In this document: positions 14,379-28,853 of the stretch, one piece after another | Position numbering within the stretch: position 1 is the first letter of the stretch | Layout: every line of letters begins with the position of its first letter | Assembly (NCBI RefSeq): GCF_002087085.1 | Contig: NZ_MWQY01000002.1 | Span: forward strand, 1 to 64,000 | Reading direction: 5' to 3' | Length of the DNA stretch: 64,000 nt | Program-made: the position numbers and the translations under genes | The notes under the pieces: generated by a model | The model's database searches: none | What the model saw: only the letters and a program-made list of their open reading frames with translations | Told to the model about the DNA's origin: nothing

Positions 14379-15392
14379 ATGAAAAAGATTGTTGGACTGA
14401 CTCTCGCACTGATGCTGATCTTCAGCCTTGCTTCCTTTGCGGAAGGCGGAAAAGAGAGCGGAACACCTGAGTCCATTACTCTCGTCGGCGGCGTCATGCT
14501 TCCCAAGGGACATGTATACTATCAGGCAATGGAAAAGTTTGTTGAGCTCCTCGATGAGTACTACACCGGTCCCATCGAACTGAAGTACGAACTTCACCAC
14601 TCCGGCTCCATCGGAACCGAAAAGGACATGTTCGAGTTCATGATGCAGGGAGTTTCCGTAGACTTTGCGGTTGTATCCCCCGCGTGGGCCGCAACCTGGG
14701 ACAAAACAGCCCCCATCATCGACGCACCCTTCCTTTTCAGGAGCATCGAGCACTGGGAACAGTCCCTTGAAGCCGGCGCCCTCGACTCTATCGCGGAAAC
14801 CATTCGGAAAAAAGGCGTCCGTTTCATCGGTTACGGCGGAGGCGGAGCCCGCAGCCTGATCCTGAATCAGCCGGTCAGCAGCCTCGAAGACTTCGGCAAG
14901 ATCGACCTGCGGGTCCAGGGTTCCCCCCTGCACGCCGCGGTATTCGGCGCCATCGGCCTGAACCCCACTCCCCTGGACTATACCGAGGTATATAACGCCA
15001 TAAAAACCGGTGTTGTCGACGGTCTCGAGAACGAACCCGCCGGACTTGAGGGCATGAAATTCTACGAGGTCGCTCCCTACTATGCTCTTTCCGAGCATCA
15101 GATCACCACCCGTATCCTCTGCTTCTCCGAGTCTAGACTTCAGAGCTTTCCCCAGGACCTGCAGGATGCCATTATAAAGGCCGGACTCGACGCCGGACGC
15201 TGGCACCGCAAGGCGGAAGTGGCTCTGGGACAGCAGATCATAGACAAACTGGTAGCCGGCCATGGCCTCAAGGTAATCGAGTTTACCAAAGCGCAGAAAG
15301 ACGAGATGGCCCGCAGGGCAATGCCGGAAGTAATGAAGTACGCCGAAGAAGTCGGTGCCACCGATATCGTCGAAACAATCCAGAATCTCTAG
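14379..15392 (+). CDS. dctP: TRAP substrate-binding protein
   Basis: Signal peptide, DLRVQ, EVYNAIKTGVVDGLENE. Confidence 0.9.
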   Translation: MKKIVGLTLALMLIFSLASFAEGGKESGTPESITLVGGVMLPKGHVYYQAMEKFVELLDEYYTGPIELKYELHHSGSIGTEKDMFEFMMQGVSVDFAVVSPAWAATWDKTAPIIDAPFLFRSIEHWEQSLEAGALDSIAETIRKKGVRFIGYGGGGARSLILNQPVSSLEDFGKIDLRVQGSPLHAAVFGAIGLNPTPLDYTEVYNAIKTGVVDGLENEPAGLEGMKFYEVAPYYALSEHQITTRILCFSESRLQSFPQDLQDAIIKAGLDAGRWHRKAEVALGQQIIDKLVAGHGLKVIEFTKAQKDEMARRAMPEVMKYAEEVGATDIVETIQNL

Positions 15393-15415
15393 AGATTAAG
15401 CTTTTCACCTTACCC

Positions 15416-15443
15416 GCAGGCCGGAGGACTCCGGCCTGCTTTT
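15416..15443 (+). terminator. Stem-loop after dctP
   Basis: GCAGGCCGGA-GGAC-TCCGGCCTGC-TTTT. Confidence 0.65.
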
Positions 15444-15467
15444 CCATTAATTCAGAGGAGCAAACCG

Positions 15468-16025
15468 ATGCCCTTGAAACTGTTTGATCTGTACGCGAAA
15501 TTCCTTATCCGCGTAATGATTGTCCTGATGTTCATCCTGCTGGGCGCCGTCGCCCTGACTGTTGCAGGCCGCTACATACCCTTTATTCCCCGCTTCCTGT
15601 GGACCCTGGAAGTCACCAACATATCCCTTATCTGGATGGTTTTTGTGGGCTCGGTAGTCGGCCTCAGGGAATCCCGGCACTTCTACATCGATATCTTCGC
15701 CGGCGGAGTCCCTCCATGGTTCGAAATGTTTCTAAAAATTCTCAACTATTTTGTTACGCTGACTGTCACCTATGTATTTGTCCGTTACGGATACCGCTTT
15801 TTTATGCAGTGGGGACTGATCCAGACCTCTGAGCTTACCGGTATAAATCTTGGTTTTCTCTATGCCTCGGTCCCCTTTGCCGGCGTATCATGGCTGATAT
15901 TCTTGATTGAGAGGTTTTACCACGACTTTATAAAAAAGGACCAGACGGAAGAACACCACATGGCCGATTCCTACCAGGTCCATCACGAAGATGAAGACAC
16001 TAAAGAAGGAGAAACGGACAAATGA
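15468..16025 (+). CDS. dctQ: TRAP small permease
   Basis: Four TM segments, WTLEV, RHFYID; lies between dctP and dctM. Confidence 0.85.
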   Translation: MPLKLFDLYAKFLIRVMIVLMFILLGAVALTVAGRYIPFIPRFLWTLEVTNISLIWMVFVGSVVGLRESRHFYIDIFAGGVPPWFEMFLKILNYFVTLTVTYVFVRYGYRFFMQWGLIQTSELTGINLGFLYASVPFAGVSWLIFLIERFYHDFIKKDQTEEHHMADSYQVHHEDEDTKEGETDK

Positions 16026-17326
16026 CAGCTGGAACAGTCGCCGCGATAATGTTCATACTGCTTATCGTCCTCATTATTTTACGCGTTCCGGTCAGTTTTA
16101 CCCTGGCCTTCGCCGTTGTACCTATTCTTTTGCTCACTCCCAGGGTCTCGCCGCTCATGCTGCTGCAGCGCATGATGGTTCAGTACGGGTCCTTTCTGCT
16201 ATTATCGATACCCTTCTTCTTACTGGCCGCTGTCATCATGAACGAGGCCAAGATCACCGACCGGCTGATCAGGTTCTCCCGCTCCATGGTGGGACCCCTT
16301 CCCGGCGGTCTTGGCCACGTTAATGTTGCGGTAAGTATGCTCTTTGCAGGTATCTCCGGTTCCTCCAATGCGGATGCCGCCGGTATCGGTTCCGTACTTA
16401 TTCCCGCCATGGAGAAAGAGGGCTACGACAAGAACTTCACCGTAGCCGTTACAGCCTGTTCGGCGGTAATGGGAAACATCATTCCCCCAAGTATTACCAT
16501 GGTTGTGTGGGGCGGGGTCATGAGTACCTCCGTTTCCGGGCTCTTTCTGGCCGGCTTTGTTCCCGGCGTAATGATCGCCCTCTTTCAGATGGCCCTGGTA
16601 CTCTACTTTGCCCTCAAGCGGGGATATCCCCGGGACGCGCGATTCAGCATAAAGGAATTTATTCAGAGCTTTCGCGGAGCAATCCTGGCCCTGGTTACAC
16701 CGCTGATTATCGTCGGCGGTATCGTCTTCGGAATCGTTACCCCCACCGAAGCTTCCATGGTGGCGGTTATCTACTCCCTTTTCCTGGGTATGTTCATCTA
16801 CAAAACCGTCTCCTTCAACAAGTTTGTCGGTCTCATGCTGGATACCGCCAAGCTGGCTTCCATCGTGCTCTTTGCCGTAGGAAGCGCCTCCATATACGGC
16901 TGGGTCCTGGCCTACTACAAAATCCCGAACTTCCTGGTTGACGTTCTCGGCGGTATTACGACCACACCCTCCCTGATGCTCATGATCTTTGTGGGAATTT
17001 TCCTGCTGGTGGGAACCTTCATGGACTCCGTTCCCGCCATCGTCATCCTCGGGCCCCTGCTCGCTCCCATTGCAGAGCATGTCGGGATACACCCCCTTCA
17101 CTTCGCCATCGTGGGAGTTGTCTCCCTGGCCTTCGGACTGGTAACCCCTCCCTACGGGCTCTGCCTGCTGATATCCAGCGAGATCGCCGGGATTAACGCC
17201 ATGCGTCCCCTCAAGGAGGTCGGACTCTTCCTGCTTTCCATGCTGGCGGTATTGCTTCTGATCATATTCTTTCCGTCCCTGACCCTGGCTATTCCCCAGG
17301 CCTTCATGCCGGAACTCTTTTTATAG
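16022..17326 (+). CDS. dctM: TRAP large permease
   Basis: SIPFFLLAA, GISGSSNADA, IIPPS, TPTEA, VTPPYG. Confidence 0.93.
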   Translation: MTAGTVAAIMFILLIVLIILRVPVSFTLAFAVVPILLLTPRVSPLMLLQRMMVQYGSFLLLSIPFFLLAAVIMNEAKITDRLIRFSRSMVGPLPGGLGHVNVAVSMLFAGISGSSNADAAGIGSVLIPAMEKEGYDKNFTVAVTACSAVMGNIIPPSITMVVWGGVMSTSVSGLFLAGFVPGVMIALFQMALVLYFALKRGYPRDARFSIKEFIQSFRGAILALVTPLIIVGGIVFGIVTPTEASMVAVIYSLFLGMFIYKTVSFNKFVGLMLDTAKLASIVLFAVGSASIYGWVLAYYKIPNFLVDVLGGITTTPSLMLMIFVGIFLLVGTFMDSVPAIVILGPLLAPIAEHVGIHPLHFAIVGVVSLAFGLVTPPYGLCLLISSEIAGINAMRPLKEVGLFLLSMLAVLLLIIFFPSLTLAIPQAFMPELFL

Positions 17327-17332
17327 ACTGTT

Positions 17333-18859
17333 ATGAAAGATAAAATACTGAGCGCCGAAGCCGCCGTCGCCCTCATAGGGGACGGCGCACGGGTTGCCCT
17401 CCACGGTTCGGGGGGCGGCATCTGTGAACCCACCCTGCTGTTGAAGAAGCTGGGAGAACGCTTTCAGAAAAACGGAAACCCAAAGGGAATAAGCATTGTC
17501 CATTCCACGGGCATAGGCAACAAGGAGGGCACCGGAATCGACCTTATCGCCTTTGCGGGCCTTGTCAAGCGTGACATTGCAGGACATTTCGGGATGTCCC
17601 CCAAAATGGGAGAGCTGATCCTGGGAAACCAGGTGGAGGCCTATAACTTTCCCCAGGGGGTACTCTCCCATATGTTTCACGCCGTGGCTGCCAGAACACC
17701 GGGGGTCATTACCAAGATAGGCCTCAACACCTACGTGGACCCGCGCCTCGAGGGCGGAAAGGCCAACGATCTCGCCACGGAAGACCTGGTAAAGGTCATA
17801 GAACTGGATGGCGAAGAGTGGCTCTTCTTCCCCCGCTTTGAGTTCGACTTTGCCTTTGTCCGGGGAACCACCGCCGACCTTAACGGAAATATAACCAATG
17901 AGGAAGACGGGCCCTTTCTGGAGGGGATGGCAATCGCCCAGGCAGTCAAAAACTGCGGAGGGACGGTTATAGCCCAGGTCAAGTATCTGGCTGAGAACGG
18001 AACCCTGGACCCGCAGCAGGTACGTATCCCGGGAATCTACGTCGATCATATCGTCGTGGATCCCGAACAGACCCAGACCTGTCTGCACAGCTACGAACCC
18101 TCCTTTGCCGGGAAGGTCCGGATTCCCCTTACAAGGATGGAACCCCTGTCCCTGGGACCGAAGAAGATTATTGCCCGGCGGGCGGCGAAGGAACTCTTCG
18201 AAGGAGCCATCGTAAACCTTGGATATGGCGCACCTGACGGAGTGGCAGCCGTGGCTTCCGAAGAAGGCATCCTGGACAAGTTTACCCTGACCGTCGAACA
18301 GGGATCCATCGGCGGACGTCCCGCGGGGGGCGTAGTCTTCGGCACCGCCTACAACCCGGAGGCCATAATTCCCATGGACGCCCAGTTCACATTCTACGAC
18401 GGCGGCGGGCTGGATCTGGCCTATCTTGGCATGGCCCAGGTCGATCAGCACGGGAACGTCAACTCCAGCCGGGTCGGACGCATGCTCGCAGGCTGCGGAG
18501 GCTTCATCAATATTACCCAGAACGCAAAAAAGGTGATCTTCTGCGGGACCTTTACTGCCAAGGGGCTCAAGTGCTCCGTGGGAGACGGCAAAATCAGCAT
18601 CGACCAGGAAGGTTCGGTACGGAAATTCGTGGACCGGGCGGCCCAGATCACCTTCAGCGGTGATTACGCCGGCAGCCTCGGACAGCCGGTACTCTATGTC
18701 ACGGAACGGGCGGTTTTTTCCCGCAGCCCGGAAGGGCTGATGCTGGAGGAGATTGCCCCGGGAGTCGACCTTGAACGGGACATTCTGGCACATATGGATT
18801 TCAAGCCCCTTATTTCACCGGATCTGAAAGAGATGGACCCGGACTTCTTCCGGGAGTGA
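17333..18859 (+). CDS. Family I acyl-CoA:carboxylate CoA-transferase (YdiF/propionate CoA-transferase-like, fused)
   Basis: EAYNFPQG, GLNTYVDPR, VNLGYG, catalytic TVEQG, GCGGFINITQ, YVTERAVF, EIAPGVD. Confidence 0.9.
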   Translation: MKDKILSAEAAVALIGDGARVALHGSGGGICEPTLLLKKLGERFQKNGNPKGISIVHSTGIGNKEGTGIDLIAFAGLVKRDIAGHFGMSPKMGELILGNQVEAYNFPQGVLSHMFHAVAARTPGVITKIGLNTYVDPRLEGGKANDLATEDLVKVIELDGEEWLFFPRFEFDFAFVRGTTADLNGNITNEEDGPFLEGMAIAQAVKNCGGTVIAQVKYLAENGTLDPQQVRIPGIYVDHIVVDPEQTQTCLHSYEPSFAGKVRIPLTRMEPLSLGPKKIIARRAAKELFEGAIVNLGYGAPDGVAAVASEEGILDKFTLTVEQGSIGGRPAGGVVFGTAYNPEAIIPMDAQFTFYDGGGLDLAYLGMAQVDQHGNVNSSRVGRMLAGCGGFINITQNAKKVIFCGTFTAKGLKCSVGDGKISIDQEGSVRKFVDRAAQITFSGDYAGSLGQPVLYVTERAVFSRSPEGLMLEEIAPGVDLERDILAHMDFKPLISPDLKEMDPDFFRE

Positions 18860-18869
18860 GGACCTTTTC

Positions 18870-19646
18870 ATGATTACCACTGTAAAAATCGAACTGCGCG
18901 CCCCGGTGGCGCGCATCATTTTCAGCGTTGATCCGCCGGGAAAACCCCCGGCGGTGGATTATGATGTTATCGACCAGCTGGAGGAGGCTGTAAAAGGTAT
19001 CGCCTCCGCAGGTCCCGATATTCGTCTGGTCCTTGTGGAGAGTTCGGAACCCAGATATTTTGTAGTCGGGGCCAACCTGAAGGCCCTGCAGCAGATCGAC
19101 AGCCAGAGTATCCGACCCTGGGTACGCCGGGGACACGATGTATTCAACATGCTGCAGGAACTGGAGCTTCCGGTCATCGCTGTTGTGCGCGGCTTTGCCG
19201 GCGGAGGCGGACTTGAGCTGGCCCTGGCCTGCGACTTTATCTATGCCGCCGATAATGCCCGTTTCGCCCTGCCGGAAGCAGGGCTGGGTCTTATTCCCGG
19301 CTGGGGAGGGAGTCACCGCCTTCCCTTAAGGATCGGCGCAGCCCGGGCCAAGGAGATGGCCTTCTCCGCCCGGCCGATCGATGCCGCAACTGCCTATGAC
19401 TGGGGACTGATCAACTGGTACGGACCGGAAGAGGAGCTTCAGCAAAAGCTCGAGGAGATCTCCGCAAGCATCAGCGCAAACAGCCGGATATCCGTGGCCA
19501 TGGAAAAACAGCTTATCAATTCCGCTGACAGTCCGGACAATCCCCGCATGAAATTCGAAGAGGCCGCCGCCTCCACCGCCGCCATGAGTTCCAGCGATAC
19601 CTCCCGCAGACTTGAGGAGTTTTTCGAAAAACGGCGGAAAAAATAG
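18870..19646 (+). CDS. Enoyl-CoA hydratase/isomerase (crotonase family)
   Basis: GGGGLELALACD and LPEAGLGLIPGWGG; both catalytic Glu present. Confidence 0.9.
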   Translation: MITTVKIELRAPVARIIFSVDPPGKPPAVDYDVIDQLEEAVKGIASAGPDIRLVLVESSEPRYFVVGANLKALQQIDSQSIRPWVRRGHDVFNMLQELELPVIAVVRGFAGGGGLELALACDFIYAADNARFALPEAGLGLIPGWGGSHRLPLRIGAARAKEMAFSARPIDAATAYDWGLINWYGPEEELQQKLEEISASISANSRISVAMEKQLINSADSPDNPRMKFEEAAASTAAMSSSDTSRRLEEFFEKRRKK

Positions 19647-19672
19647 CAGATTATCTACACAGGAGTCGCCTT

Positions 19673-22054
19673 ATGTCGTATCTGGACAACCCCATCCGGC
19701 TGCAGGAAGTCCGCAGTTTCTACCTTGAACGTCTTCTCAAGCCGAAGCTTACATCTGAACGGGCGGATATCGTGACCAGGTCCTATGCCCGAACCGAAGG
19801 TTCCCATCCCATAACCCGGCGGGCACAGGCCCTTAAGGACATCCTTGCCGAAATGAGCATCTACATCAAACCCTGGGAACTCCTGGCGGGCAATCTTGGA
19901 CCGGAACCCGTCTCCGCTCCGGTATTTCCCGAGGGCGGTGCCGATTTTATCCTCGAAGAGATGGACAGCTACGGCACCCGGCCGGGAGACAAGTTCGAAG
20001 TCAGCGAAGAGACAAAAACAGAGCTCCGGAGGATCCTTCCCCTGTGGAAAGGAAAAACCCTGAAGGAGTACGGCCTCTCCCTGATGCCGGAAGGTCCGGT
20101 ACGGATGCGGGAAGCCGGGGTATTCTCCGCGGAAAACATGCTCACCTGCGGTACCGGACACTTTCTGCCGGATTATACCAAGGTACTGGAGCAGGGCTTT
20201 CGCGGCATAAGCGAACAGGCTAAAGCAGCCCTTATGACCCTGGACCTGAGCCGGGAAGAGGGATACGAAAAACGCATCTTTTACGAGGCCGTGCTGACCA
20301 TCTGTGCCGCCGTCAGAGACTTCTCCCTCCGTTACGCCGAGCTTGCCGATTCCATGGCCGCTGAAGAAAAGGAGGAAGAACGGCGAAGGGAACTGAAAAA
20401 AATCGCGGAGGTCTGCCGCAGGGTGCCCTGGGAGCCCGCCGCAGGTTTCGCCGAAGCCGTCCAGAGCCTCTGGTTCACCCACCTGGTCTGTTATATCGAC
20501 TCCAACGGTTACGGCGTAACCCTGGGACGCTCCGCCTCCTGTCTGTATCCCTGGTATCGATCAAGTATTGCTTCCGGAGAGATCGACAGGGAAGGAGCGC
20601 TGGCTCTTCTTGTAAGTCTCTTTTTCAAGACAAACGACATCCTGAAGCTCTACAACAACAACGCCGCCCAGAATTACGGCGGCTTTCCCGTGGGACAGCC
20701 GGTCCAGCTGGGGGGAATCAACGCCGCCGGAGAGGACGATACCAACGAACTGAGCTTCCTCTTTCTGGAGGCGGAGAAAAAGGTAAAACTTTATCAGCCG
20801 GATATCGGCTTTCTGTGGACCGAAAAGATCAATCCCGGGTTTTTCCGGGCGGCAACGGAACTTGTGGCAACAAACTCAAAGCCCAAGTTTTTCAACTACC
20901 ATGTGGGTTCCGCCATGTACCGCCAGGCGGGATTATCGGAAGAGACTGCCCAAAAGGACTGGGCCTTTATCGGCTGCGTCGAATACGGAGTCCCGGGTAA
21001 AACCTGGACCTGGGCCGACGCCGCCATGTTCAACCTGGCAAAATGCCTTGAACTGGCCCTTAACGACGGGATAGACCCGGTAAGCGGCAGCCGCCTCGGG
21101 CCCCAGACAGGAAGCCCGGAGGACTTCAAGGATTTCAGCCAGTTTCTCTCCGCCCTGCAGCGGCAGATTGCCTACATGTTTGACCTGACGGTTCAGGGCA
21201 TAACCGCTTTACAGGTTGCCCATAAACACTGCTGGCCGGAACCCTACGAATCTCTGCTTGTAGACGGCTGCATGCAGAGCGGCAGGGAGGTCAACCAGGG
21301 CGGCGCCACATCCTACCACACAGGCGTCCAGTTCGTGGGATTCGCCACGGTGGTGGATTCACTGCTTGCGATAAAACACTTTGTGTTCGAGCACCGGAGC
21401 ATAAACTTCCGGGACCTGGTGGACAACCTTGGAGAAAATTTCAGGAATAATGAGGTACTCCGTGTACGTCTTTTGCGGGAGACCCCCCGGTTTGGTATGG
21501 ACAGGGATGATATAAACTCCCTGGCGGGAGAGGTTTTCACCTACTGCTGCGACACCGCAGGCCGTTACCGGGATATATGGGGAGGGCTCTATACTGCAAG
21601 TCTCTACAGCCTCACGGCCCATGTAGGTTTCGGCGCCCGGGTCGGGGCGACTCCGGACGGCCGGATGGCCTTCTCTCCCCTATCCGATGCCAGTTCACCA
21701 TCTCAGGGACTGCAGAACGGCTCCGTGACCGAGATCTTCACCACCCAGTCGAAGCTCCCTCACCACAAGGCCATAAACGGTACCCTGCTGAACATGAAGC
21801 TCAACAAGAAACTGCTGTCCGGCCCGGAAGGAACGGCCAGGCTGCAGAACCTTATAAGCACCTACTTCAAGATGGGAGGCTTTCATGTTCAGTTCAATGT
21901 CGTGGACGTGGAGGTTCTCAAGGATGCCCAGGCGAATCCGGACAAGTATCCAGATTTCCTGATCCGGGTCGCCGCTTACGTTACCAACTGGAATCAGCTG
22001 AGCCGGGATGTTCAGAACGAGATAATATCCCGGGCCGAGATGGAGAGTTTTTAG
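19673..22054 (+). CDS. Glycyl-radical-enzyme-family protein with Ala at the radical site (putative alanyl/aminoacyl radical enzyme)
   Basis: 793 aa GRE fold: RRAQAL, ELLAGN, GHFLPDY, GCVE (Cys435), ATPDGR, NGTLLNMK, HVQFNVVD; C-terminal LIRVAAY instead of RV(A/S)GY. Confidence 0.9.
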   Translation: MSYLDNPIRLQEVRSFYLERLLKPKLTSERADIVTRSYARTEGSHPITRRAQALKDILAEMSIYIKPWELLAGNLGPEPVSAPVFPEGGADFILEEMDSYGTRPGDKFEVSEETKTELRRILPLWKGKTLKEYGLSLMPEGPVRMREAGVFSAENMLTCGTGHFLPDYTKVLEQGFRGISEQAKAALMTLDLSREEGYEKRIFYEAVLTICAAVRDFSLRYAELADSMAAEEKEEERRRELKKIAEVCRRVPWEPAAGFAEAVQSLWFTHLVCYIDSNGYGVTLGRSASCLYPWYRSSIASGEIDREGALALLVSLFFKTNDILKLYNNNAAQNYGGFPVGQPVQLGGINAAGEDDTNELSFLFLEAEKKVKLYQPDIGFLWTEKINPGFFRAATELVATNSKPKFFNYHVGSAMYRQAGLSEETAQKDWAFIGCVEYGVPGKTWTWADAAMFNLAKCLELALNDGIDPVSGSRLGPQTGSPEDFKDFSQFLSALQRQIAYMFDLTVQGITALQVAHKHCWPEPYESLLVDGCMQSGREVNQGGATSYHTGVQFVGFATVVDSLLAIKHFVFEHRSINFRDLVDNLGENFRNNEVLRVRLLRETPRFGMDRDDINSLAGEVFTYCCDTAGRYRDIWGGLYTASLYSLTAHVGFGARVGATPDGRMAFSPLSDASSPSQGLQNGSVTEIFTTQSKLPHHKAINGTLLNMKLNKKLLSGPEGTARLQNLISTYFKMGGFHVQFNVVDVEVLKDAQANPDKYPDFLIRVAAYVTNWNQLSRDVQNEIISRAEMESF

Positions 22055-22059
22055 GCGCC

Positions 22060-23001
22060 GTGGATAATACCGTGCACAACGAAATCAGGGGGACAGTTTT
22101 TAACTGCGAAACCTTCAGCCTCCACAACGGACCGGGTATACGGACGACCCTTTTTCTCAAGGGCTGTCCCCTGCGCTGCCTGTGGTGCGCCAACCCTGAA
22201 AGCTGGAGTATGGAAGCCGAAGTCAGCTACAACCGGGAACTCTGCATCCCTGAATGCCACGAATGCGAGAAGGTTGCCGGAAGCGGCCTTCTTGAACGGG
22301 ACCGTGAGGGAAAAATTGTCATACCTCCCGCAGCCCCGCGAAGCGATCCTGCCCTTATAGCCGCTGCCCGGGCCTGCCCCGCCCGGGCGCTTTCGGTTGA
22401 GGGTTACACCATATCCGTGGACGAAGCCGCAAAGCTGCTCTGCAGGGACCGGCCTTTTTTCGAGGAATCCGGAGGCGGAGTTACCCTCTCCGGGGGTGAA
22501 CCTCTTCTGCAGCCCGAATTTTCGGCTGCGCTCCTGGGACGCCTGAAAACAGAGGGAATTCACACAGCCCTGGATACCTGCGGAGATGCTGCCCCGGAAG
22601 TATACAGGGAAGTTAGCAGTCTTGCAGACCTCATCCTCTTCGATTTCAAGGCCGCCCACAGCGGACTCCACAGGGAATGCACCGGACAATCCAACGAGAG
22701 GATTCTGGTGAACCTGGAGCAGACTGCCGCGGAACGTCCGGAGCAGCTGCGGGTACGTATTCCCTTTATTCCCGGACTCAATGGAACCGAAGGGGAGTTA
22801 TCTGCCATGGCCAGGGTATTAAAGGGACTGGGGATATCCCGGGCGGAACTTCTTCCTTACCATCGCCTGGGAATTCACAAGTACCGGCAGCAGGGCAAGG
22901 AATATACTTTGGGATCAGTGGAAATCCCGGGTTCGGAAATCCTGAAGACAGCAGTCCGTATCTGCAGGGACCTGGGAGTCGAACTGCATATACAGCACTA
23001 G
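22060..23001 (+). CDS. Radical-SAM GRE-activating enzyme
   Basis: GPGIRTTLFLKGCPLRCLWCANPES (CX3CX2C), SGGGVTLSGGEP, LLPYHRLG; GTG start inferred just after the upstream stop. Confidence 0.92.
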   Translation: MDNTVHNEIRGTVFNCETFSLHNGPGIRTTLFLKGCPLRCLWCANPESWSMEAEVSYNRELCIPECHECEKVAGSGLLERDREGKIVIPPAAPRSDPALIAAARACPARALSVEGYTISVDEAAKLLCRDRPFFEESGGGVTLSGGEPLLQPEFSAALLGRLKTEGIHTALDTCGDAAPEVYREVSSLADLILFDFKAAHSGLHRECTGQSNERILVNLEQTAAERPEQLRVRIPFIPGLNGTEGELSAMARVLKGLGISRAELLPYHRLGIHKYRQQGKEYTLGSVEIPGSEILKTAVRICRDLGVELHIQH

Positions 23002-23007
23002 AAGAGC

Positions 23008-23682
23008 CTAGTTCTTAACCTGGGACTCCTGGACCATATTCCCCTGGATTACCAGGGTGAGGACCCGGATTTTACTGTTCTCGATATGCCGGGTAAGCAG
23101 TTCCGAGGCTTTCTCGATATCCCGGATACAGAGGGCGTCTATCAGCTCTATATGCTCCTGGATAGTGACATCCTTGGAAAACTGCTGCCTCAGGCTCAGC
23201 TCCCAGAAGGTCTGGGTAAGCCGGTACAGCTGATCCAGCATACGGATAAGCCGCCGCCTGCCGCTGGATTGAATAAGATAGGAGTGAAAATACCCGTCCA
23301 CCCGTGCATGCTCCTGGAAGTCGAGACTGTCCTTCAACCCCAGGATAAGGGCCTTCATTTCAAGCAGCTTCTGTATGCTCAGAGAGTTTGCCGCCCTTCG
23401 CAGGGCCAGAGACTCGAGTTCCCTGCGCAGTTCGTAAATATCCTCGAGATCGTCCGCGGTAAAGGGAAAAATACGGGCTCCCCTCTTGGGAAGAATCTCT
23501 ATCAGGTGGTCCTGTTCGAGATTCTGCAGTACACTGCGCACCGGGGATCTGCTGACATTGAACTCCCGGGCCAGGAGGTCCTCCCGCAACCAGGTATCTT
23601 CAGGATATTCGTTTTGTATTATCCTGTTGAAAAGGGTGGTGTAAATTTCATGCCGAGTCGTTTTAGTATTCTTGTTTTCCAT
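23008..23682 (-). CDS. GntR-family regulator (FCD)
   Basis: VSRSPVR HTH, EDIYELRRELE, FH, EH, HIENS. Confidence 0.9.
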   Translation of the reverse strand: MENKNTKTTRHEIYTTLFNRIIQNEYPEDTWLREDLLAREFNVSRSPVRSVLQNLEQDHLIEILPKRGARIFPFTADDLEDIYELRRELESLALRRAANSLSIQKLLEMKALILGLKDSLDFQEHARVDGYFHSYLIQSSGRRRLIRMLDQLYRLTQTFWELSLRQQFSKDVTIQEHIELIDALCIRDIEKASELLTRHIENSKIRVLTLVIQGNMVQESQVKN

Positions 23683-23778
23683 AATGTCCCAACCCTAACC
23701 ATTATTACACGGCCCCGGAGTATTGTATATAAGAAAATTTTCTCTTTTTCGCGCCCATATTGATTAAATCAGGTAAAC

Positions 23779-23839
23779 TTGTATACAGTTCAGATGCAGC
23801 TCGCTCTACTTATCGATTTAATATCGTTTATGTATACGA
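23779..23839. promoter_or_regulatory. Candidate GntR operators (GTATAC core)
   Basis: TTGTATACAG at 23779 and ATGTATACGA at 23830 in the divergent gntR/dctP intergenic region. Confidence 0.45.
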
Positions 23840-23957
23840 TCAGCAAAGCTTATGGAAAATGTTTGACGTAAAGTCCATATCGTAGTATAAAGGATGTAAT
23901 ACAACCCTTTATCTCTGGGTTGTACAAATACTAAATCTTGTGGAAAAGGAGTTTTTC

Positions 23958-25118
23958 ATGCAAGGAAAAAAATGGCTAGGTAAACTTTCCATTTCTCTCT
24001 TGGTAGTGTTGTCTCTTCTTGCCGTTTCATGCGCCAAAGAAGAGCCTGCCCAGGCTGCAGCCCCCGCGGCTCCCGCCGAATCTCAGCAGGCAGCATCCTC
24101 TGAGGCCATCCCCGACATGATCGATATGACCATGCCTTCGAGTACGGTTACCCTCAGACTGGCTTACGATGACCCCACCCTCTGGCCCAAGCAGGCAAAT
24201 GTTCCCGACCCCGAGCATGCTCAGGCACTGCTCTTCAAGGACTACGTGGAAAGCCAGACCGGCGGAGCTGTCAAGATTGACCTCTACGGTGCCGGCCAGC
24301 TCGGAACCTACCGGGAAACCCTGGAAATGGTTCAGCAGGGCTCCATGGACATCAACATTGGTACCGGATCTCTCGGTTCTTTCTTTGATCCCTTCCAGAT
24401 CTTCACCATCCCCTACCTCTTCAGCTCAGACGACATCGCCGTCGGCTACTTCGAGCGGAGCGAATGGTGGGCAGACCTGATGGATCAGATGGAAGACGAA
24501 ACCGGCATGAAGTACCTCGGTATGGGTCAGAACGGCTGGAGAAACTTCACCAACAACGTACGTGAAATCCGCAAACCCGAAGACCTCAAGGGCATCAAGT
24601 TCCGCGTTATGCAGAGCCCCGTATACGTGAAGATGATCGAGTCCATGGGCGGAAGCGCTGTTCCCATCGCCTGGAACGAGCTCTACACCGCACTGCAGAC
24701 CGGTGTTGTTGACGGCGAAGAGAACCCCATCTCCTCCATCGCCCTGGGTAAACTCCAGGAAGTTCAGAAATACCTGACCATGGACGGCCACGTATGGTCC
24801 GAAAACGTCATGGTTATGAACGCTGCGAAGTTCAACGACATGCCCGTAGGCGTTCAGCAGATCCTGGTTCAGGGCGGAATGCTGGCAGCTCGTGCCAACA
24901 ACGTTGCAGAGAGAATGGTATCCAATATCGTCAAGTTCGAAGAAGTTGCCAAGCAGATGCAGGTTTACTTCCCCACCGCCGGCGAAAAGGCTGAATTCCG
25001 CAAGGTTTCCCAGCCCGCGGTTATCGAATACCTGGAAGGCGAGCTTGGAGAAGACATGGTTAACGGCTTCCTGACCAGTGTTCAGCAGATGGAAGCAGAA
25101 CTCGGTTGGAGACGCTAA
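23958..25118 (+). CDS. dctP: TRAP substrate-binding lipoprotein
   Basis: Lipobox LAVSC, Ala/Pro linker, IKFRVMQ, ELYTALQTGVVDGEENP. Confidence 0.9.
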   Translation: MQGKKWLGKLSISLLVVLSLLAVSCAKEEPAQAAAPAAPAESQQAASSEAIPDMIDMTMPSSTVTLRLAYDDPTLWPKQANVPDPEHAQALLFKDYVESQTGGAVKIDLYGAGQLGTYRETLEMVQQGSMDINIGTGSLGSFFDPFQIFTIPYLFSSDDIAVGYFERSEWWADLMDQMEDETGMKYLGMGQNGWRNFTNNVREIRKPEDLKGIKFRVMQSPVYVKMIESMGGSAVPIAWNELYTALQTGVVDGEENPISSIALGKLQEVQKYLTMDGHVWSENVMVMNAAKFNDMPVGVQQILVQGGMLAARANNVAERMVSNIVKFEEVAKQMQVYFPTAGEKAEFRKVSQPAVIEYLEGELGEDMVNGFLTSVQQMEAELGWRR

Positions 25119-25162
25119 TCTCTTCTTGCCTTTTTTCTACCGACACCCCTTAAGGGTGTTGC

Positions 25163-25199
25163 GATGGCAGTCCGCTCTCACAGGCGGGCTGCCGTCTTT
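25163..25199 (+). terminator. Stem-loop after dctP
   Basis: GATGGCAGTCCGC-loop-GCGGGCTGCCGTC-TTT. Confidence 0.55.
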
Positions 25200-25237
25200 A
25201 TCTAATCTACTTCGCTATCAATTGGAGATAATCACCA

Positions 25238-25753
25238 ATGGTAAAATATCTGAAACAAGCCAGTGACATTGTGCATGTGGTCACCAAGTGGTGGCTCTTT
25301 GTCTATGTCCTGTCCGTAACTATTCTGGCGATTGTCGGCGTCTTCTTCCGCGCCATCGGGAACTCCCTCTCGTGGAACGAGGAACTTATGCGCTGGATAC
25401 TCATCGGTATCGGTTACATCGGAGCTGCGGTGGCCCTCAAGGAACGGAGCCACATAGGCATTGAGTTTTTCATTACCCGGATGAAGCCCAAACTCCGCAA
25501 GTTCTCCATTATCCTCGGATACCTTACAATCGTCCTTTTTCTGCTTGTTGTACTTATTTACGGTTACAAATCCGCAGACGTCGCCTGGCGACAGAAGGGG
25601 TCGATTCTGCGAGTTCCCATGTACTGGGTTAAACTAAACCTGCCCCTGGGCTCACTGTTCATGCTCGTTCACATGACCTACTTCACCGTCGGTTTCTTTA
25701 AGGAGAAAGGCGATGACCGTGAGTACCTGCTGAGCGGCGGACACGACTTTTAA
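25238..25753 (+). CDS. dctQ: TRAP small permease
   Basis: WNEELMRW, SHIGIE, four TM segments. Confidence 0.88.
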   Translation: MVKYLKQASDIVHVVTKWWLFVYVLSVTILAIVGVFFRAIGNSLSWNEELMRWILIGIGYIGAAVALKERSHIGIEFFITRMKPKLRKFSIILGYLTIVLFLLVVLIYGYKSADVAWRQKGSILRVPMYWVKLNLPLGSLFMLVHMTYFTVGFFKEKGDDREYLLSGGHDF

Positions 25754-25770
25754 GGGAGCCGGAGAATTTT

Positions 25771-27066
25771 ATGAATATTGCAGTATACACAATGGTTTTC
25801 CTTTTTGTAATTCTTCTTGTAATAGGCGTACCCATCGCCTTTGTACTGGGTCTGGTACCCCTTATCTACCTCCTCTTCTTCAAAGGTCTTCCCCTTATAG
25901 CCATTGCCTCGAAACTCTACGGAGGGATCGATAACTACGTTCTGTTGGCCCTGCCCTTCTTTATCCTCGCCGGTAACATAATGAACAACACGGGAATAAC
26001 GAAGGACCTGGTCAACTTTGCGCGTCTTCTGGTCGGTCGTGTCCGGGGTGCCCTGGCGCAGGTAAATATCGTCGTCAGTATCGCCTTTGCGGGTCTCACC
26101 GGAGCGGCTGTTGCGGACACCGCGGCCATCGGCTCCATTCTGATTCCCGCCATGAAGGAAGAGGGCTATTCCGCAGAATACTCTGCGGCTGTTACCACGG
26201 CCTCCTCGGTTATCGGACCGATCATTCCCCCCAGCATAATCATGGTAATTTATGCCTCGGTTACCGGAGAATCCGTAGGAGCCCTGTTCATGGGCGGCTT
26301 CCTCCCCGGTCTCGCGGTGGCCCTCTCCCTGATGATCCTGGCCTATATTTACGCCATCAGGCTGAACCATCCGAAGCGGACAGAACGGATCAGCGCCAAA
26401 GAAGCCTTCTACATAATCCGTCGATCCGTTCTTGCAATGATGGTCCCCCTTATAATCATCGGTGGTATTCTTACCGGTGTCTTTACCCCCACGGAAGCTG
26501 CAGCTGTTGCCTGTCTCTACGCTTTTCTGGTAGGCGTGTTCTATTACAAAACCCTTACCGTGAAGAACATGATCGACAGCCTCATTGACGCAGGCCGGGT
26601 TTCTGCAACCATCCTGCTGATCATCTCCGCAAGCCAGCTCTTCAGCATGGTACTGACCATCGAGAAGATCCCCGAGCATATTGCCGAGGTGATGACCTCC
26701 GTCATTACCAACAAGTATGTCTTCCTGCTGGTTGTCAACGTGCTGTTCTTCTTTATGGGAATGGTTATGGAGATATCCGCCAGCGTTATCATGCTCACCC
26801 CCATCCTGCTGCCTCTGGCCATGGAATACGGTGTACATCCCCTGCACTTTGCCCTGATCATGCTGGTCAACCTGAATATCGGCCTTACCACGCCGCCTGT
26901 TGGGGTATGTCTCTTTACGGCTGTGCCGATTGCCAAGTGTTCCGTGGAAAAGATGGTCCCCAAGGTAATGCCCTTTGTAATCGCCGAGATGATCGCTGTT
27001 CTGTTTATTACCTATGTTCCGGAGATCACCCTCTTCCTGCCGAGACTCACGGGCTTTATCGAATAG
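25771..27066 (+). CDS. dctM: TRAP large permease
   Basis: LALPFFILAG, GAAVAD, GPIIPPS, FTPTEAA, TTPPVG. Confidence 0.93.
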   Translation: MNIAVYTMVFLFVILLVIGVPIAFVLGLVPLIYLLFFKGLPLIAIASKLYGGIDNYVLLALPFFILAGNIMNNTGITKDLVNFARLLVGRVRGALAQVNIVVSIAFAGLTGAAVADTAAIGSILIPAMKEEGYSAEYSAAVTTASSVIGPIIPPSIIMVIYASVTGESVGALFMGGFLPGLAVALSLMILAYIYAIRLNHPKRTERISAKEAFYIIRRSVLAMMVPLIIIGGILTGVFTPTEAAAVACLYAFLVGVFYYKTLTVKNMIDSLIDAGRVSATILLIISASQLFSMVLTIEKIPEHIAEVMTSVITNKYVFLLVVNVLFFFMGMVMEISASVIMLTPILLPLAMEYGVHPLHFALIMLVNLNIGLTTPPVGVCLFTAVPIAKCSVEKMVPKVMPFVIAEMIAVLFITYVPEITLFLPRLTGFIE

Positions 27067-27091
27067 TTAGAAAGAGTATTTTATTTCAGAT

Positions 27092-27133
27092 AAAAAAAAG
27101 CCGGCGAAGCGTACGCTTCAGCCGGCTTTTTTT
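27092..27133. terminator. Bidirectional intrinsic terminator
   Basis: A8-GCCGGCGAAGCG-TA-CGCTTCAGCCGGC-T7. Confidence 0.8.
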
Positions 27134-27149
27134 ATCCCGGGACGGCAGC

Positions 27150-28454
27150 TTACAGAAGATTCCCTTCAGCATCGAACTCCATCTCTTTCGGGTCCTCGAG
27201 GATCTCGATATCCGGGTTCTTTTTTGCCTCATCCAGCATGGATTCGGAAATCCAGATCTCATCCACGTGGGAGGAGTTCCGTATTCTCAAGACTCTGGGA
27301 TTGTCCACACCGTTACCCGTGCGCACATACATGGCGGCCTGAATGGCGAGACGGTCGGTTTTCAGTACCATGGGCATACGGACGGTTATGGCAACTCTGG
27401 CGGTCAGGGCGTTGGGATAGCCCGCATCGAAGTCCGCCTGATCAAAAACCTTCCTGGTTGTGTAATTGGCCATGCCTATTCCGATACAGTTACCGTGGGT
27501 TGCCTCGGAAAGGTTCAGTACTACATACTCCTCCACCCTGGGGGGACCCGAGGCAAACTCGGTACAGTAACTTCCCGTAATATTGGGATCCATACCGTCT
27601 CCGGAATGGTTCTTTCCTATCTCATCCACCACCATGATGTCGAGCTTGTCAAAAAAGATCCGCGCCATCTTTTCCTTGGCTTCCTTAAGAAGCTTCGGCT
27701 CCTCCTCGGGGATCTCTTCTGGGGTAAGGGCGATAATGCGGTTGGTCTCGTCATGGGCATTCTCGATGATGGAGAGCCCGAAGAGAATATTGGCATTCTT
27801 CAGAATAGCCATTCCGTAGGCTACAACATTCTCCGCCATCTTGCGGAAACCCTGGCTGTGACAGGCCTCGGCCCCCTGGTGCTTGGCAACTCCAATAGCC
27901 ATCATCTTGAGCATGCCGCTCTCGTAGGGCCCCCTGAAAGCCGTATGGGCTTTTATTCTTCCCACCAGGACTATGCCGTCAGCCTCCGAGGCATACTTGT
28001 CAATATAAACAGGGCGCCCGTCCTCAAGGGTGGCCACCTGCACGACCTCCATGGAGGCCTTTATCGGGGCTCCCACATATTCCTCGGTAACGCCGAAACC
28101 TTCGATCATTTCCCGTTGACCTTCCGCGGTTCCGCCGCCGTGGCTCCCCATGGCGGGGAAGACAAAGGGTTTTGCGCCCAGTTCTTTAAGGGCCGCAACG
28201 GTCTCCCTGATGATCAGGGCGATATTGGCAATACCGCGGCTGCCGCAGGTAACCGCAACGGTCATTCCCGGTTTTATGGTTCCCGCGATCTTCTGCTGGT
28301 TTATCTGCTTCTTTATTTCCCCTGGAATATCTTCCAGTACGTCGTCATTCAGTTTCTGACGGACCTTGACCATCCTTGGAAGCGGGGTACCGCCAATCAT
28401 TCGTTGGACAACACCATTCCGATCCCAGACACTTTCGCGCAGATTAGTACTCAT
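27150..28454 (-). CDS. Lactate racemase (LarA) N-terminal-domain family protein
   Basis: GSRGIANI, PAMGSHGG, RIKAHT, ESGMLKMMAIG, GKNHSGDGMDPN; start at MSTNLR. Confidence 0.75.
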   Translation of the reverse strand: MSTNLRESVWDRNGVVQRMIGGTPLPRMVKVRQKLNDDVLEDIPGEIKKQINQQKIAGTIKPGMTVAVTCGSRGIANIALIIRETVAALKELGAKPFVFPAMGSHGGGTAEGQREMIEGFGVTEEYVGAPIKASMEVVQVATLEDGRPVYIDKYASEADGIVLVGRIKAHTAFRGPYESGMLKMMAIGVAKHQGAEACHSQGFRKMAENVVAYGMAILKNANILFGLSIIENAHDETNRIIALTPEEIPEEEPKLLKEAKEKMARIFFDKLDIMVVDEIGKNHSGDGMDPNITGSYCTEFASGPPRVEEYVVLNLSEATHGNCIGIGMANYTTRKVFDQADFDAGYPNALTARVAITVRMPMVLKTDRLAIQAAMYVRTGNGVDNPRVLRIRNSSHVDEIWISESMLDEAKKNPDIEILEDPKEMEFDAEGNLL

Positions 28455-28853
28455 TCCACACACTCCCTCTAGTACAGGTATTCGATTATGTTAAAATACA
28501 ATTATCTTCTATAATCATTACTTTATCAACAATAATATCAAAATTGTATTAAGGTAACCCGGGGGAACAGGGGATTTCAGCACATGCCGGGCTGCAGGAG
28601 TTCACCCCACGGATTCTCTGCAGCCTGCGGGTGATTGCCCGGATCACACATTCGGCAGATTATTCAGTATCCTGAATACTGTACCTATATACTAATATAC
28701 ACATAACCTGTTCCTGAGTAAAAGTCGCTTTCCCCGGATTAAGCAGAAATTGCTCAAGATAAGTATACAATTTAATACAATCAAAGCCCTTTTGGTTGCG
28801 TAATAACAATAATTGGCGTACAATATGAGAACACTTTTTGACAGGAGTCATTT

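Follow-up and report, generated by a model that had tools for sequence, protein, structure and literature searches.

An asparagine at the loop-anchoring position of an activase follows a loop subtype of alanyl radical enzymes and not their radical-site alanine

Introduction

Glycyl radical enzyme (GRE) homologues in which the radical position is taken by Ala, Ser or Thr, i.e., the alanyl, seryl and threonyl radical enzymes (AREs, SREs and TREs), were described only in 2024 (Fu et al., 2024, JACS; PMC11528403). As given in the main text of that article, 17 Ala-type enzymes were listed, each class is monophyletic and closest to the eliminases, no function has been assigned, and an alanyl C-alpha radical was seen by electron paramagnetic resonance (EPR) on the ARE of Desulfoscipio geothermicus (DgARE), generated by its own activase (DgARE-AE). 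Here we describe an activase gene, located at 22060..23001 on the forward strand of a stretch of 64,000 nucleotides (positions 1 to 64,000 of contig NZ_MWQY01000002.1, NCBI RefSeq assembly GCF_002087085.1, referred to below as the window), which directly adjoins the gene of such an alanyl radical enzyme. A DGxGxR motif with Asp is a hallmark of the activase family, and the activase of the window carries Asn in the place of that Asp.

In the Escherichia coli pyruvate formate-lyase activase PflA (PFL-AE), Asp16 of this motif is described as an anchor residue that hydrogen-bonds Gly734, a contact credited to the structure of Vey et al., 2008 (PMC9326890); the claim of a first-pass annotation of this DNA that the motif contacts the substrate loop is thus in line with the published description. 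PFL-AE takes the pro-S hydrogen of Gly734, which occupies the very site that the methyl group of L-Ala fills, and L-Ala at position 734 is not turned into a radical by PflA (PMC10665898). Since the two sites coincide, ARE activases must present the loop differently, and, as described below, Asp is nevertheless retained in the majority of them. The same annotation had proposed that Asn co-evolved with the radical-site Ala so as to fit its methyl group.

A 2026 review (PMC13450708) states that a function is lacking for every aminoacyl radical enzyme and that the specificity of activases, which appears to depend on the sequence of the Gly loop, has hardly been studied. The DGxGxR motif is not mentioned in the main text of PMC11528403, nor are Asp and Asn, either abbreviated or spelled out, and we found no paper on the Asn variant in the literature on aminoacyl or alanyl radical enzymes or on the DGxGxR/Asp16 motif.

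The activase and its anchor residue

The gene at 22060..23001 encodes 313 amino acids from a GTG start codon and specifies a radical S-adenosylmethionine (SAM) protein of the PFL2/eliminase type. It scores 283 bits against TIGR02494 (PFLE_PFLC, glycyl-radical enzyme activating protein; cut-off 174.35), contains the Pfam domains Radical_SAM and Fer4_12, and matches the PFL-AE structures 8fo0 and 3c8f with an E value of 2e-36 (phmmer). Membership in the NrdG family is contradicted by a TIGR02491 score of 41.5 bits against a cut-off of 126.1, by the length of 313 residues with an insert, and by the PFL-like neighbor. That neighbor is an ARE of 793 amino acids, an eliminase-type GRE homologue (Pfam, NCBIfam) encoded at 19673..22054 on the same strand. 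The start codon of the activase at 22060 lies six bases past the ARE stop codon, and the best explanation of the arrangement is that the product of 22060-23001 would be the dedicated activase of this enzyme.

The motif in question, HNGPGIR, is a variant of the loop-binding motif xDGxGxR and lies at 22123..22143 (+), where CAC AAC GGA CCG GGT ATA CGG encodes H22 N23 G24 P25 G26 I27 R28, eight residues ahead of the CX3CX2C motif. phmmer aligned it to V15-D16-G17-P18-G19-I20-R21 of PFL-AE in both structures, placing Asn23 (AAC, 22126..22128, +) on Asp16. Direct reading, translation and alignment therefore agree with the earlier assignment of Asn to the Asp position of DGxGxR: both glycines and the arginine of the hallmark are present, and Asp is replaced by Asn.

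In the partner, the radical loop R765-V-A-A768-Y-V-T771-N772-W773 occupies 21965..21991 (+), as established by reading and alignment. Its first part, RVAAY, is encoded by CGG GTC GCC GCT TAC (21965-21979), and A768 (GCT, 21974-21976) stands in place of the radical glycine of the RVxG[FWY] fingerprint. DgARE and its activase resemble this pair in that the enzyme is eliminase-type, with a radical-site Ala (A762 there, A768 here), a conserved catalytic Cys and an adjoining activase (PMC11528403). They differ in that the enzyme of the window belongs to the RVAAYVTNW subclade treated below and its activase has an Asn anchor and a degenerate ferredoxin insert. E. coli PflA (PDB 3C8F/3CB8, 8FO0) in turn shares the radical-SAM core, the CX3CX2C motif and an xGPGIR motif, and differs from the activase of the window by Asp16, by having no ferredoxin insert and by its substrate Gly734.

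Asparagine and the loop subtypes of alanyl radical enzymes

The relation between the anchor residue and the partner loop was examined in 38 ARE loci found by a metagenome scan with the loop-specific pattern [VI]RVAAY[VI][AT]x[FW], plus one ARE locus of a genome scan, enzymes and activases being paired by gene adjacency. Once identical activases had been removed, 30 distinct ARE-linked activases remained, which carry Asp in 24 cases, Asn in four and Glu in two. All four Asn activases, like that of the window, adjoin enzymes with one single loop, RVAAYVTNW, and read HNGPGIR or DNGPGIR (loci L082, L083, L084 and L086). The remaining loop subtypes go with other motifs: VAPW with DDGPG[IT]R, VALW with DDGPGIR or HDGPGIR, VAQF, VAEF and related loops mostly with QDGPGIR, IALF and VAYF with HDGPGIR, and VALF with QDGPGIR (L004, L101) or HEGPGIR (L108, L110). 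One assignment was made by hand, the L086 activase, which lies between a nearer Gly-type gene and a VTNW ARE, being attributed to the latter; eight further VTNW/Asn pairs and two VAQF/Asp pairs were inferred only from equal-sized source contigs. Asn, then, does not track the change from Gly to Ala. The proposed covariation of Gly/Ala with Asp/Asn across enzyme-activase neighbors is not borne out, for Asn follows the VTNW subclade.

The HEGPGIR motif constitutes a third state of an otherwise Asp-fixed residue, and was seen at L108:2070-3020 and L110:645-1013, in both cases with the partner loop RVAAYVALF.

The reading that we favor, and regard as reasonably likely on comparative sequence grounds, is that Asn23 is a fixed feature, probably maintained by selection, of those activases that serve one nested ARE subfamily, the one with the VTNW loop, and not of ARE activases at large; it would tune the recognition of this loop subtype rather than fit the Ala methyl group. 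Asn arose after the Gly-to-Ala change and, within the resolution of the trees, together with the changes Ala-to-Thr and x-to-Asn at positions +3 and +4 of the loop.

The idea of compensation, in which Asp-to-Asn accommodates the Ala methyl group and both residues co-evolved, has some observations in its favor. The genome of the window contains two more enzyme-activase pairs, an ordinary PflB/PflA pair (RVSGY with LDGPGIR, G000:C1:172575-173715) and another GRE of the eliminase type, served by a separate activase (RVAGF with HDGPGIR, G000:C34:60594-63807), so that three separate pairs are kept in this genome, and the contrast between Ala/Asn in the window and Gly/Asp in the two others is what compensation would predict. 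Likewise, wherever an Asn activase has a PFL-like partner that is known, it adjoins an ARE, and Asn is absent from the Gly-paired activases described in the next section. Nevertheless, 26 of the 30 distinct ARE-linked activases have Asp or Glu at the anchor; Asn is limited to a nested ARE subclade, and hence later than the Gly-to-Ala change; Asn-type NrdG activases stand beside canonical-Gly NrdD enzymes in four genomes; a Gly-type paralogue is a further neighbor of the Asn activase in L084 and L086; and the published activases of AREs, SREs and TREs also act on Gly variants of their partners (PMC11528403). Altogether, these data make compensation very improbable.

As most ARE activases keep Asp, the stereochemical adaptation to L-alanine must lie elsewhere, which moves it away from the Asp16 position. 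In a comparison of 30 ARE-linked with 59 Gly-linked activases, the 22 columns that best separate the two groups do not include position 23, another point that speaks against compensation. Two columns separate the groups far better than position 23 does and could be considered as exploratory candidate sites for the adaptation to alanine, their counts being phylogenetically non-independent. At D172 (22573-22575), which lies within ALDTCG and is aligned to CLDTNG of PFL-AE, Asp occurs in 29 of 30 ARE-linked activases, versus Glu in 50 and Asp in nine of the 59 Gly-linked ones; at A44 (22189-22191), which follows the third cluster cysteine and adjoins the Asn38 equivalent, Ser, Ala or Gly occurs in 29 of 30, versus Gln or His in 43 of 59.

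Rarity and conservation of the asparagine

The anchor state was also read, at the position of PFL-AE Asp16, in the best 120 activase homologues listed, where 27 have Asn, 92 have Asp and one has no N-terminus; the closest 18 full-length homologues among them all carry Asn. As a control for Gly-type partners, one-genome-per-species contigs were scanned with a mixed Ala/Gly alignment. Among the 78 loci listed, one of which has an ARE, pairs of a Gly-type enzyme and a same-strand activase within 1.6 kb show Asp in 61 of 61 cases and Asn in none; these 61 control loci were not assigned to the HpsH, HypD-AE or CutD families.

Of 401 genomes from the phylum Spirochaetota, 95 contain a match to a degenerate DNA pattern that encodes [D/N]GPGIR...F..GC. 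The window alone starts with AAY among the matches listed, all others of which start with GAY, and an Asn-only pattern run across the same 401 genomes returned the window's own genome as its single match. The first-pass annotation had named, as the observation that would speak against its view, an NGxGxR motif equally common in activases of ordinary Gly-containing GREs; for PFL-like activases this is not what is found (0/61 among the loci listed; 1/401 Spirochaetota genomes). Asn is thus rare and non-random among PFL-like activases. Its non-random character, already perceived in the annotation, is apparent from the closest homologues, from the Asp that both remaining activases of this genome carry, and from the turnover of its codon, which is AAC in three and AAT in two of five subclade copies available as DNA. 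Both codons are one transition away from Asp, and reversals to Asp have nonetheless not been fixed.

Two groups of Asn activases, N1 and N2, can be distinguished. N1 comprises L083, L084, L086, P0136-P0139, P0143, P0144 and P0147; N2 comprises the activase of the window with L082, P0123, P0124, P0126-P0135, P0140, P0189 and P0217. In both together Asn is found in 27 of 27 sequences, while the preceding residue varies between H, D, K and Y, and the nearest N2 rows beyond the four-row group of the window are separated from it by 1.0-1.6 changes per column of tree path. Conservation in all 27 with both AAC and AAT in use indicates that Asn23 is probably selected and would serve the recognition of the VTNW loop subtype.

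These data also bear on a neutral history, in which a conservative Asp-to-Asn change was fixed once in the ancestor of an operon lineage and inherited with the VTNW loop, having no function of its own. In its favor, Asn appears sporadically at three other places of the activase tree, a single origin is not rejected by the tests described below, and NrdG activases with Asn beside Gly substrates suggest that either residue is tolerated. On the other hand, Asp is extremely conserved elsewhere, both in the 61 Gly-paired activases and in the other Spirochaetota matches listed, all GAY, and Asn persists in diverged activases in spite of synonymous codon turnover; hence both states look constrained and not drifting. 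We therefore consider neutrality unlikely, while granting it some weight.

Asparagine activases beside glycine enzymes

The Asn-only pattern also matched in five of 401 genomes of the phylum to which a metagenome-assembled genome of Clostridia (G401) belongs, and all five are short NrdG-type activases: four are NrdG proteins adjoining an NrdD with RTCGYLG[ED], and the fifth is a short protein that resembles NrdG. These xNGPGIR proteins are like the activase of the window in having Asn at the same motif position, and differ from it by their length (170-212 residues, as open frames), by the lack of an insert, and by a partner NrdD with the canonical RTCGY glycine. To judge from this gene order, Asn in NrdG apparently works beside a canonical glycine partner.

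The possibility that Asn is simply the normal state of NrdG was considered and rejected, since a family-based sample (the best 28 loci from 61 genomes) gave 22 Asp, one Asn, one Glu and four loci with no motif found, i.e., Asn is a minority state there (1/28).

In the metagenome loci L084 (1708-7527) and L086 (296-6713), the order is ARE, Asn activase and second PFL-like enzyme with a normal glycine, whose loop reads KVAGYSAQF in L084 and RVTGYSAFF in L086; the latter locus also contains the start of a third such enzyme. In the available stretches of both loci no second activase was found, and the single one present may act on two enzymes, the Ala-type and the Gly-type one.

Order and number of origins

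A FastTree phylogeny of the enzymes was built from 102 Ala-type and 12 Gly-type rows, its branch support being unexamined. All RVAAY[VI] sequences form one clade, with the close homologue of the window's enzyme inside. Within this clade, the VTNW AREs constitute a single nested group, whose sister is the VALW group, followed by the VAPW group, both served by Asp-type activases. As Asn is confined to the nested VTNW subclade, the Gly-to-Ala change is older than the Asp-to-Asn change. Two sub-branches of the VTNW enzymes correspond to the activase groups N1 and N2, a match that rests partly on the pairing of equal-sized contigs.

On the activase side, an approximately unbiased (AU) test and fast likelihood searches were carried out on 71 rows and four topologies. 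A tree constrained to hold all Asn rows together reached a log-likelihood (lnL) of -33402, the first free fast search -33420, and a free search that took the constrained tree as its starting point -33388. This last tree, the best of the three, unites all 36 ARE-linked activases in one clade; N1 stands beside the Asp types of the VAPW/VALW groups, and N2 is a branch of its own. By the AU test, no topology of the four can be rejected (p 0.22, 0.35, 0.85 and 0.16), the value for the constrained single Asn clade being p-AU 0.35. A single origin of Asn fits the co-diversification of AREs and activases, and two origins, or one followed by a reversal, may also account for the data.

It has to be acknowledged that several observations weigh against the view of Asn23 as a selected recognition trait of the VTNW subfamily. 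Three further isolated occurrences of Asn lie among Asp-type activases (P0145; P0202; P0158 with P0170). N1 and N2 are separate in FastTree (209 rows) and in a quick IQ-TREE analysis (118 rows), N1 lying within the clade of ARE activases and N2 beside a clade of 27 Asp rows (98*). Moreover, one or two evolutionary events cannot show co-evolution, as any trait fixed on the stem of the VTNW clade shows just as good a correlation with Asn; Asp-to-Asn is a conservative change that could be nearly neutral; and any contact between Asn23 and T771 or N772 is a conjecture.

The separation of N1 and N2 raises another scenario, in which Asn arose twice, in two activase lineages that were each recruited to VTNW AREs, and may let one activase serve an Ala-type and a Gly-type enzyme. 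It draws on the placements in FastTree and IQ-TREE just mentioned, on the best likelihood tree, where the sister of N1 is the Asp-type group of APW/ALW and N2 branches off separately, and on the gene order of L084 and L086. Yet the AU test keeps the single Asn clade, and the constrained tree surpassed the first free search, so that the split seen by FastTree and the quick IQ-TREE run is unreliable; furthermore, the ARE tree shows the plain co-diversification of two VTNW sub-branches with N1 and N2, and in the window the list of open reading frames (ORFs) contains no second PFL-like enzyme adjoining the activase. We regard this scenario as improbable.

Returning to tuning of the VTNW loop subtype, the process can be outlined by analogy with PFL-AE and with the published work on AREs. 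The activase would bind the C-terminal loop RVAAYVTNW of its partner, SAM would be cleaved at the cluster held by C36, C40 and C43, and the resulting 5'-deoxyadenosyl radical would take the C-alpha hydrogen of Ala768. The amide of Asn23 would keep the acceptor side of the bond to the backbone NH and add a donor, which would tune specificity for the VTNW partner instead of making room for the methyl group. The RVAAYVTNW enzymes are defined here as an ARE subfamily with a signature in the activase, namely the Asn anchor, to which the branch of the window adds a reduced auxiliary-cluster domain.

A bolder version, offered with considerable doubt, is that Asn23 would be matched to the loop's Thr and Asn at +3 and +4 as a recognition pair, by which partner specificity is set within the AREs, Asn having perhaps been gained twice. 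Asn activases would perhaps be dual-specific as well, generating an alanyl radical on the ARE and a glycyl radical on the adjacent Gly-type paralogue of L084 and L086. If true, it would represent the first residue-level code for the matching of activase and partner in this superfamily.

The cluster-binding regions of the activase

The motif CPLRCLWC, at 22165..22188 (+), is of the type CX3CX2C; its cysteines C36, C40 and C43, the ligands of the SAM-binding [4Fe-4S] cluster, are aligned to C29, C33 and C36 of PFL-AE (numbering according to PMC13450708). An eight-Cys ferredoxin-like insert with two auxiliary clusters is typical of most activases other than those of PFL and ribonucleotide reductase (RNR), as stated in the same review. 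The corresponding insert of the window's activase (residues 62-106, 22243..22377, +) is degenerate: cysteine counting leaves C62, C66, C69 and C106 alone, four instead of eight, the CX2CX2CX3C motif is absent, and the Pfam scan, which gave Radical_SAM and Fer4_12, found no ferredoxin-type domain in the insert region. There seems to be room for one auxiliary cluster at most. The 14 closest activases are likewise poor in cysteine, with 3-7 in the 95 residues past the SAM-cluster motif; the same stretch contains 7-10 in the other Asn group, in the KNGPGIR subgroup and in most Asp-type ARE activases.

The best-scoring characterized families, the eliminase activases HpsH, HypD-AE and CutD (NF048010, NF043069 and TIGR04395), share the overall architecture of the window's activase, with an insert after the SAM cluster. 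It scores 277, 243 and 234 bits against them, below the respective equivalog cut-offs of 430, 425 and 360.

The alanyl radical enzyme and its relatives

In the enzyme itself, both the barrel and the C-terminal radical domain are present (PF02901, PFL-like, 603.5 bits; PF01228, Gly_radical, 85.6 bits). Its score of 646 bits against TIGR01774 is slightly below the cut-off of 678, and no equivalog was reached. The C-terminal end reads ...LIRVAAYVTNWNQL..., and the presumed thiyl radical site is Cys435 (20975..20977, +) in a GCVE loop (FIGC435VEYG), of which G434, C435 and V436 are invariant in the alignment.

The radical-site Ala is real and widespread. Homologues of the C-terminal half were collected as clusters at 90% identity, and the best 120 listed comprise 78 Ala-type, 41 Gly-type and one truncated cluster. 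The loops of the 78 are RVAA[YF]VTNW in 20, VAQF in 25, VALF in 11, VAPW in seven and VALW in five, along with a few rarer ones. In six VTNW loop copies available as DNA, the Ala codon is GCT three times and GCC three times. The annotation's statement that RVAAY is neither a sequencing error nor the mark of a dead gene is well founded, given an Ala conserved in a large clade, its synonymous codons, and a class shown experimentally in 2024 (PMC11528403).

More generally, sequencing error and pseudogenization, considered as explanations for the RVAAY and Asn genes, were rejected on the grounds of conservation and synonymous codon variation.

The Ala-type enzymes seen here far outnumber the 17 listed in 2024; metagenomes of sediment and of other environments are the main source, and several loop subtypes can be told apart among them. 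One sequence, P0048, has the loop RVAAYSAFF, i.e., a Gly-type flank in which Gly alone has changed, and stands outside the main ARE clade in FastTree. Either Gly changed to Ala independently in this sequence, or it could be a basal ARE.

Genomic context

The ARE and its activase close a row of genes on the same strand: TRAP-like ORFs, a CoA-transferase, an enoyl-CoA hydratase, the ARE and the activase. The CoA-transferase (17333..18859, +) lies directly 5' of the hydratase (18870..19646, +), which in turn lies directly 5' of the ARE; both were assigned through Pfam/NCBIfam, and both are probably in one operon with the ARE. They are preceded by three putative TRAP transporter-like ORFs (DctP/Q/M-like, 14379..17326, +), assigned from translations read by eye. 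Downstream of the activase, a GntR/FCD regulator is encoded on the reverse strand (23008..23682, -), divergent from a second TRAP transporter. A regulator of this kind also adjoins the ARE in the metagenome loci L082 and L084, and L082 (3-7849) repeats the order CoA-transferase, hydratase, ARE, activase, GntR, DctP and DctQ.

The closest named protein to the ARE is 99% identical and comes from Marispirochaeta aestuarii, and this match, together with the gene context, provides a lead that may point to a carboxylic acid or acyl-CoA pathway. As the lack of cultured hosts is the main obstacle to finding the function of these enzymes, according to the main text of PMC11528403, the M. aestuarii strain, if available in culture, could help to find what AREs do, and the CoA-transferase, the enoyl-CoA hydratase, the putative TRAP genes and the GntR regulator beside the ARE offer a concrete starting point. 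A LarA-like gene lies further along the same neighborhood (window 14379-28463).

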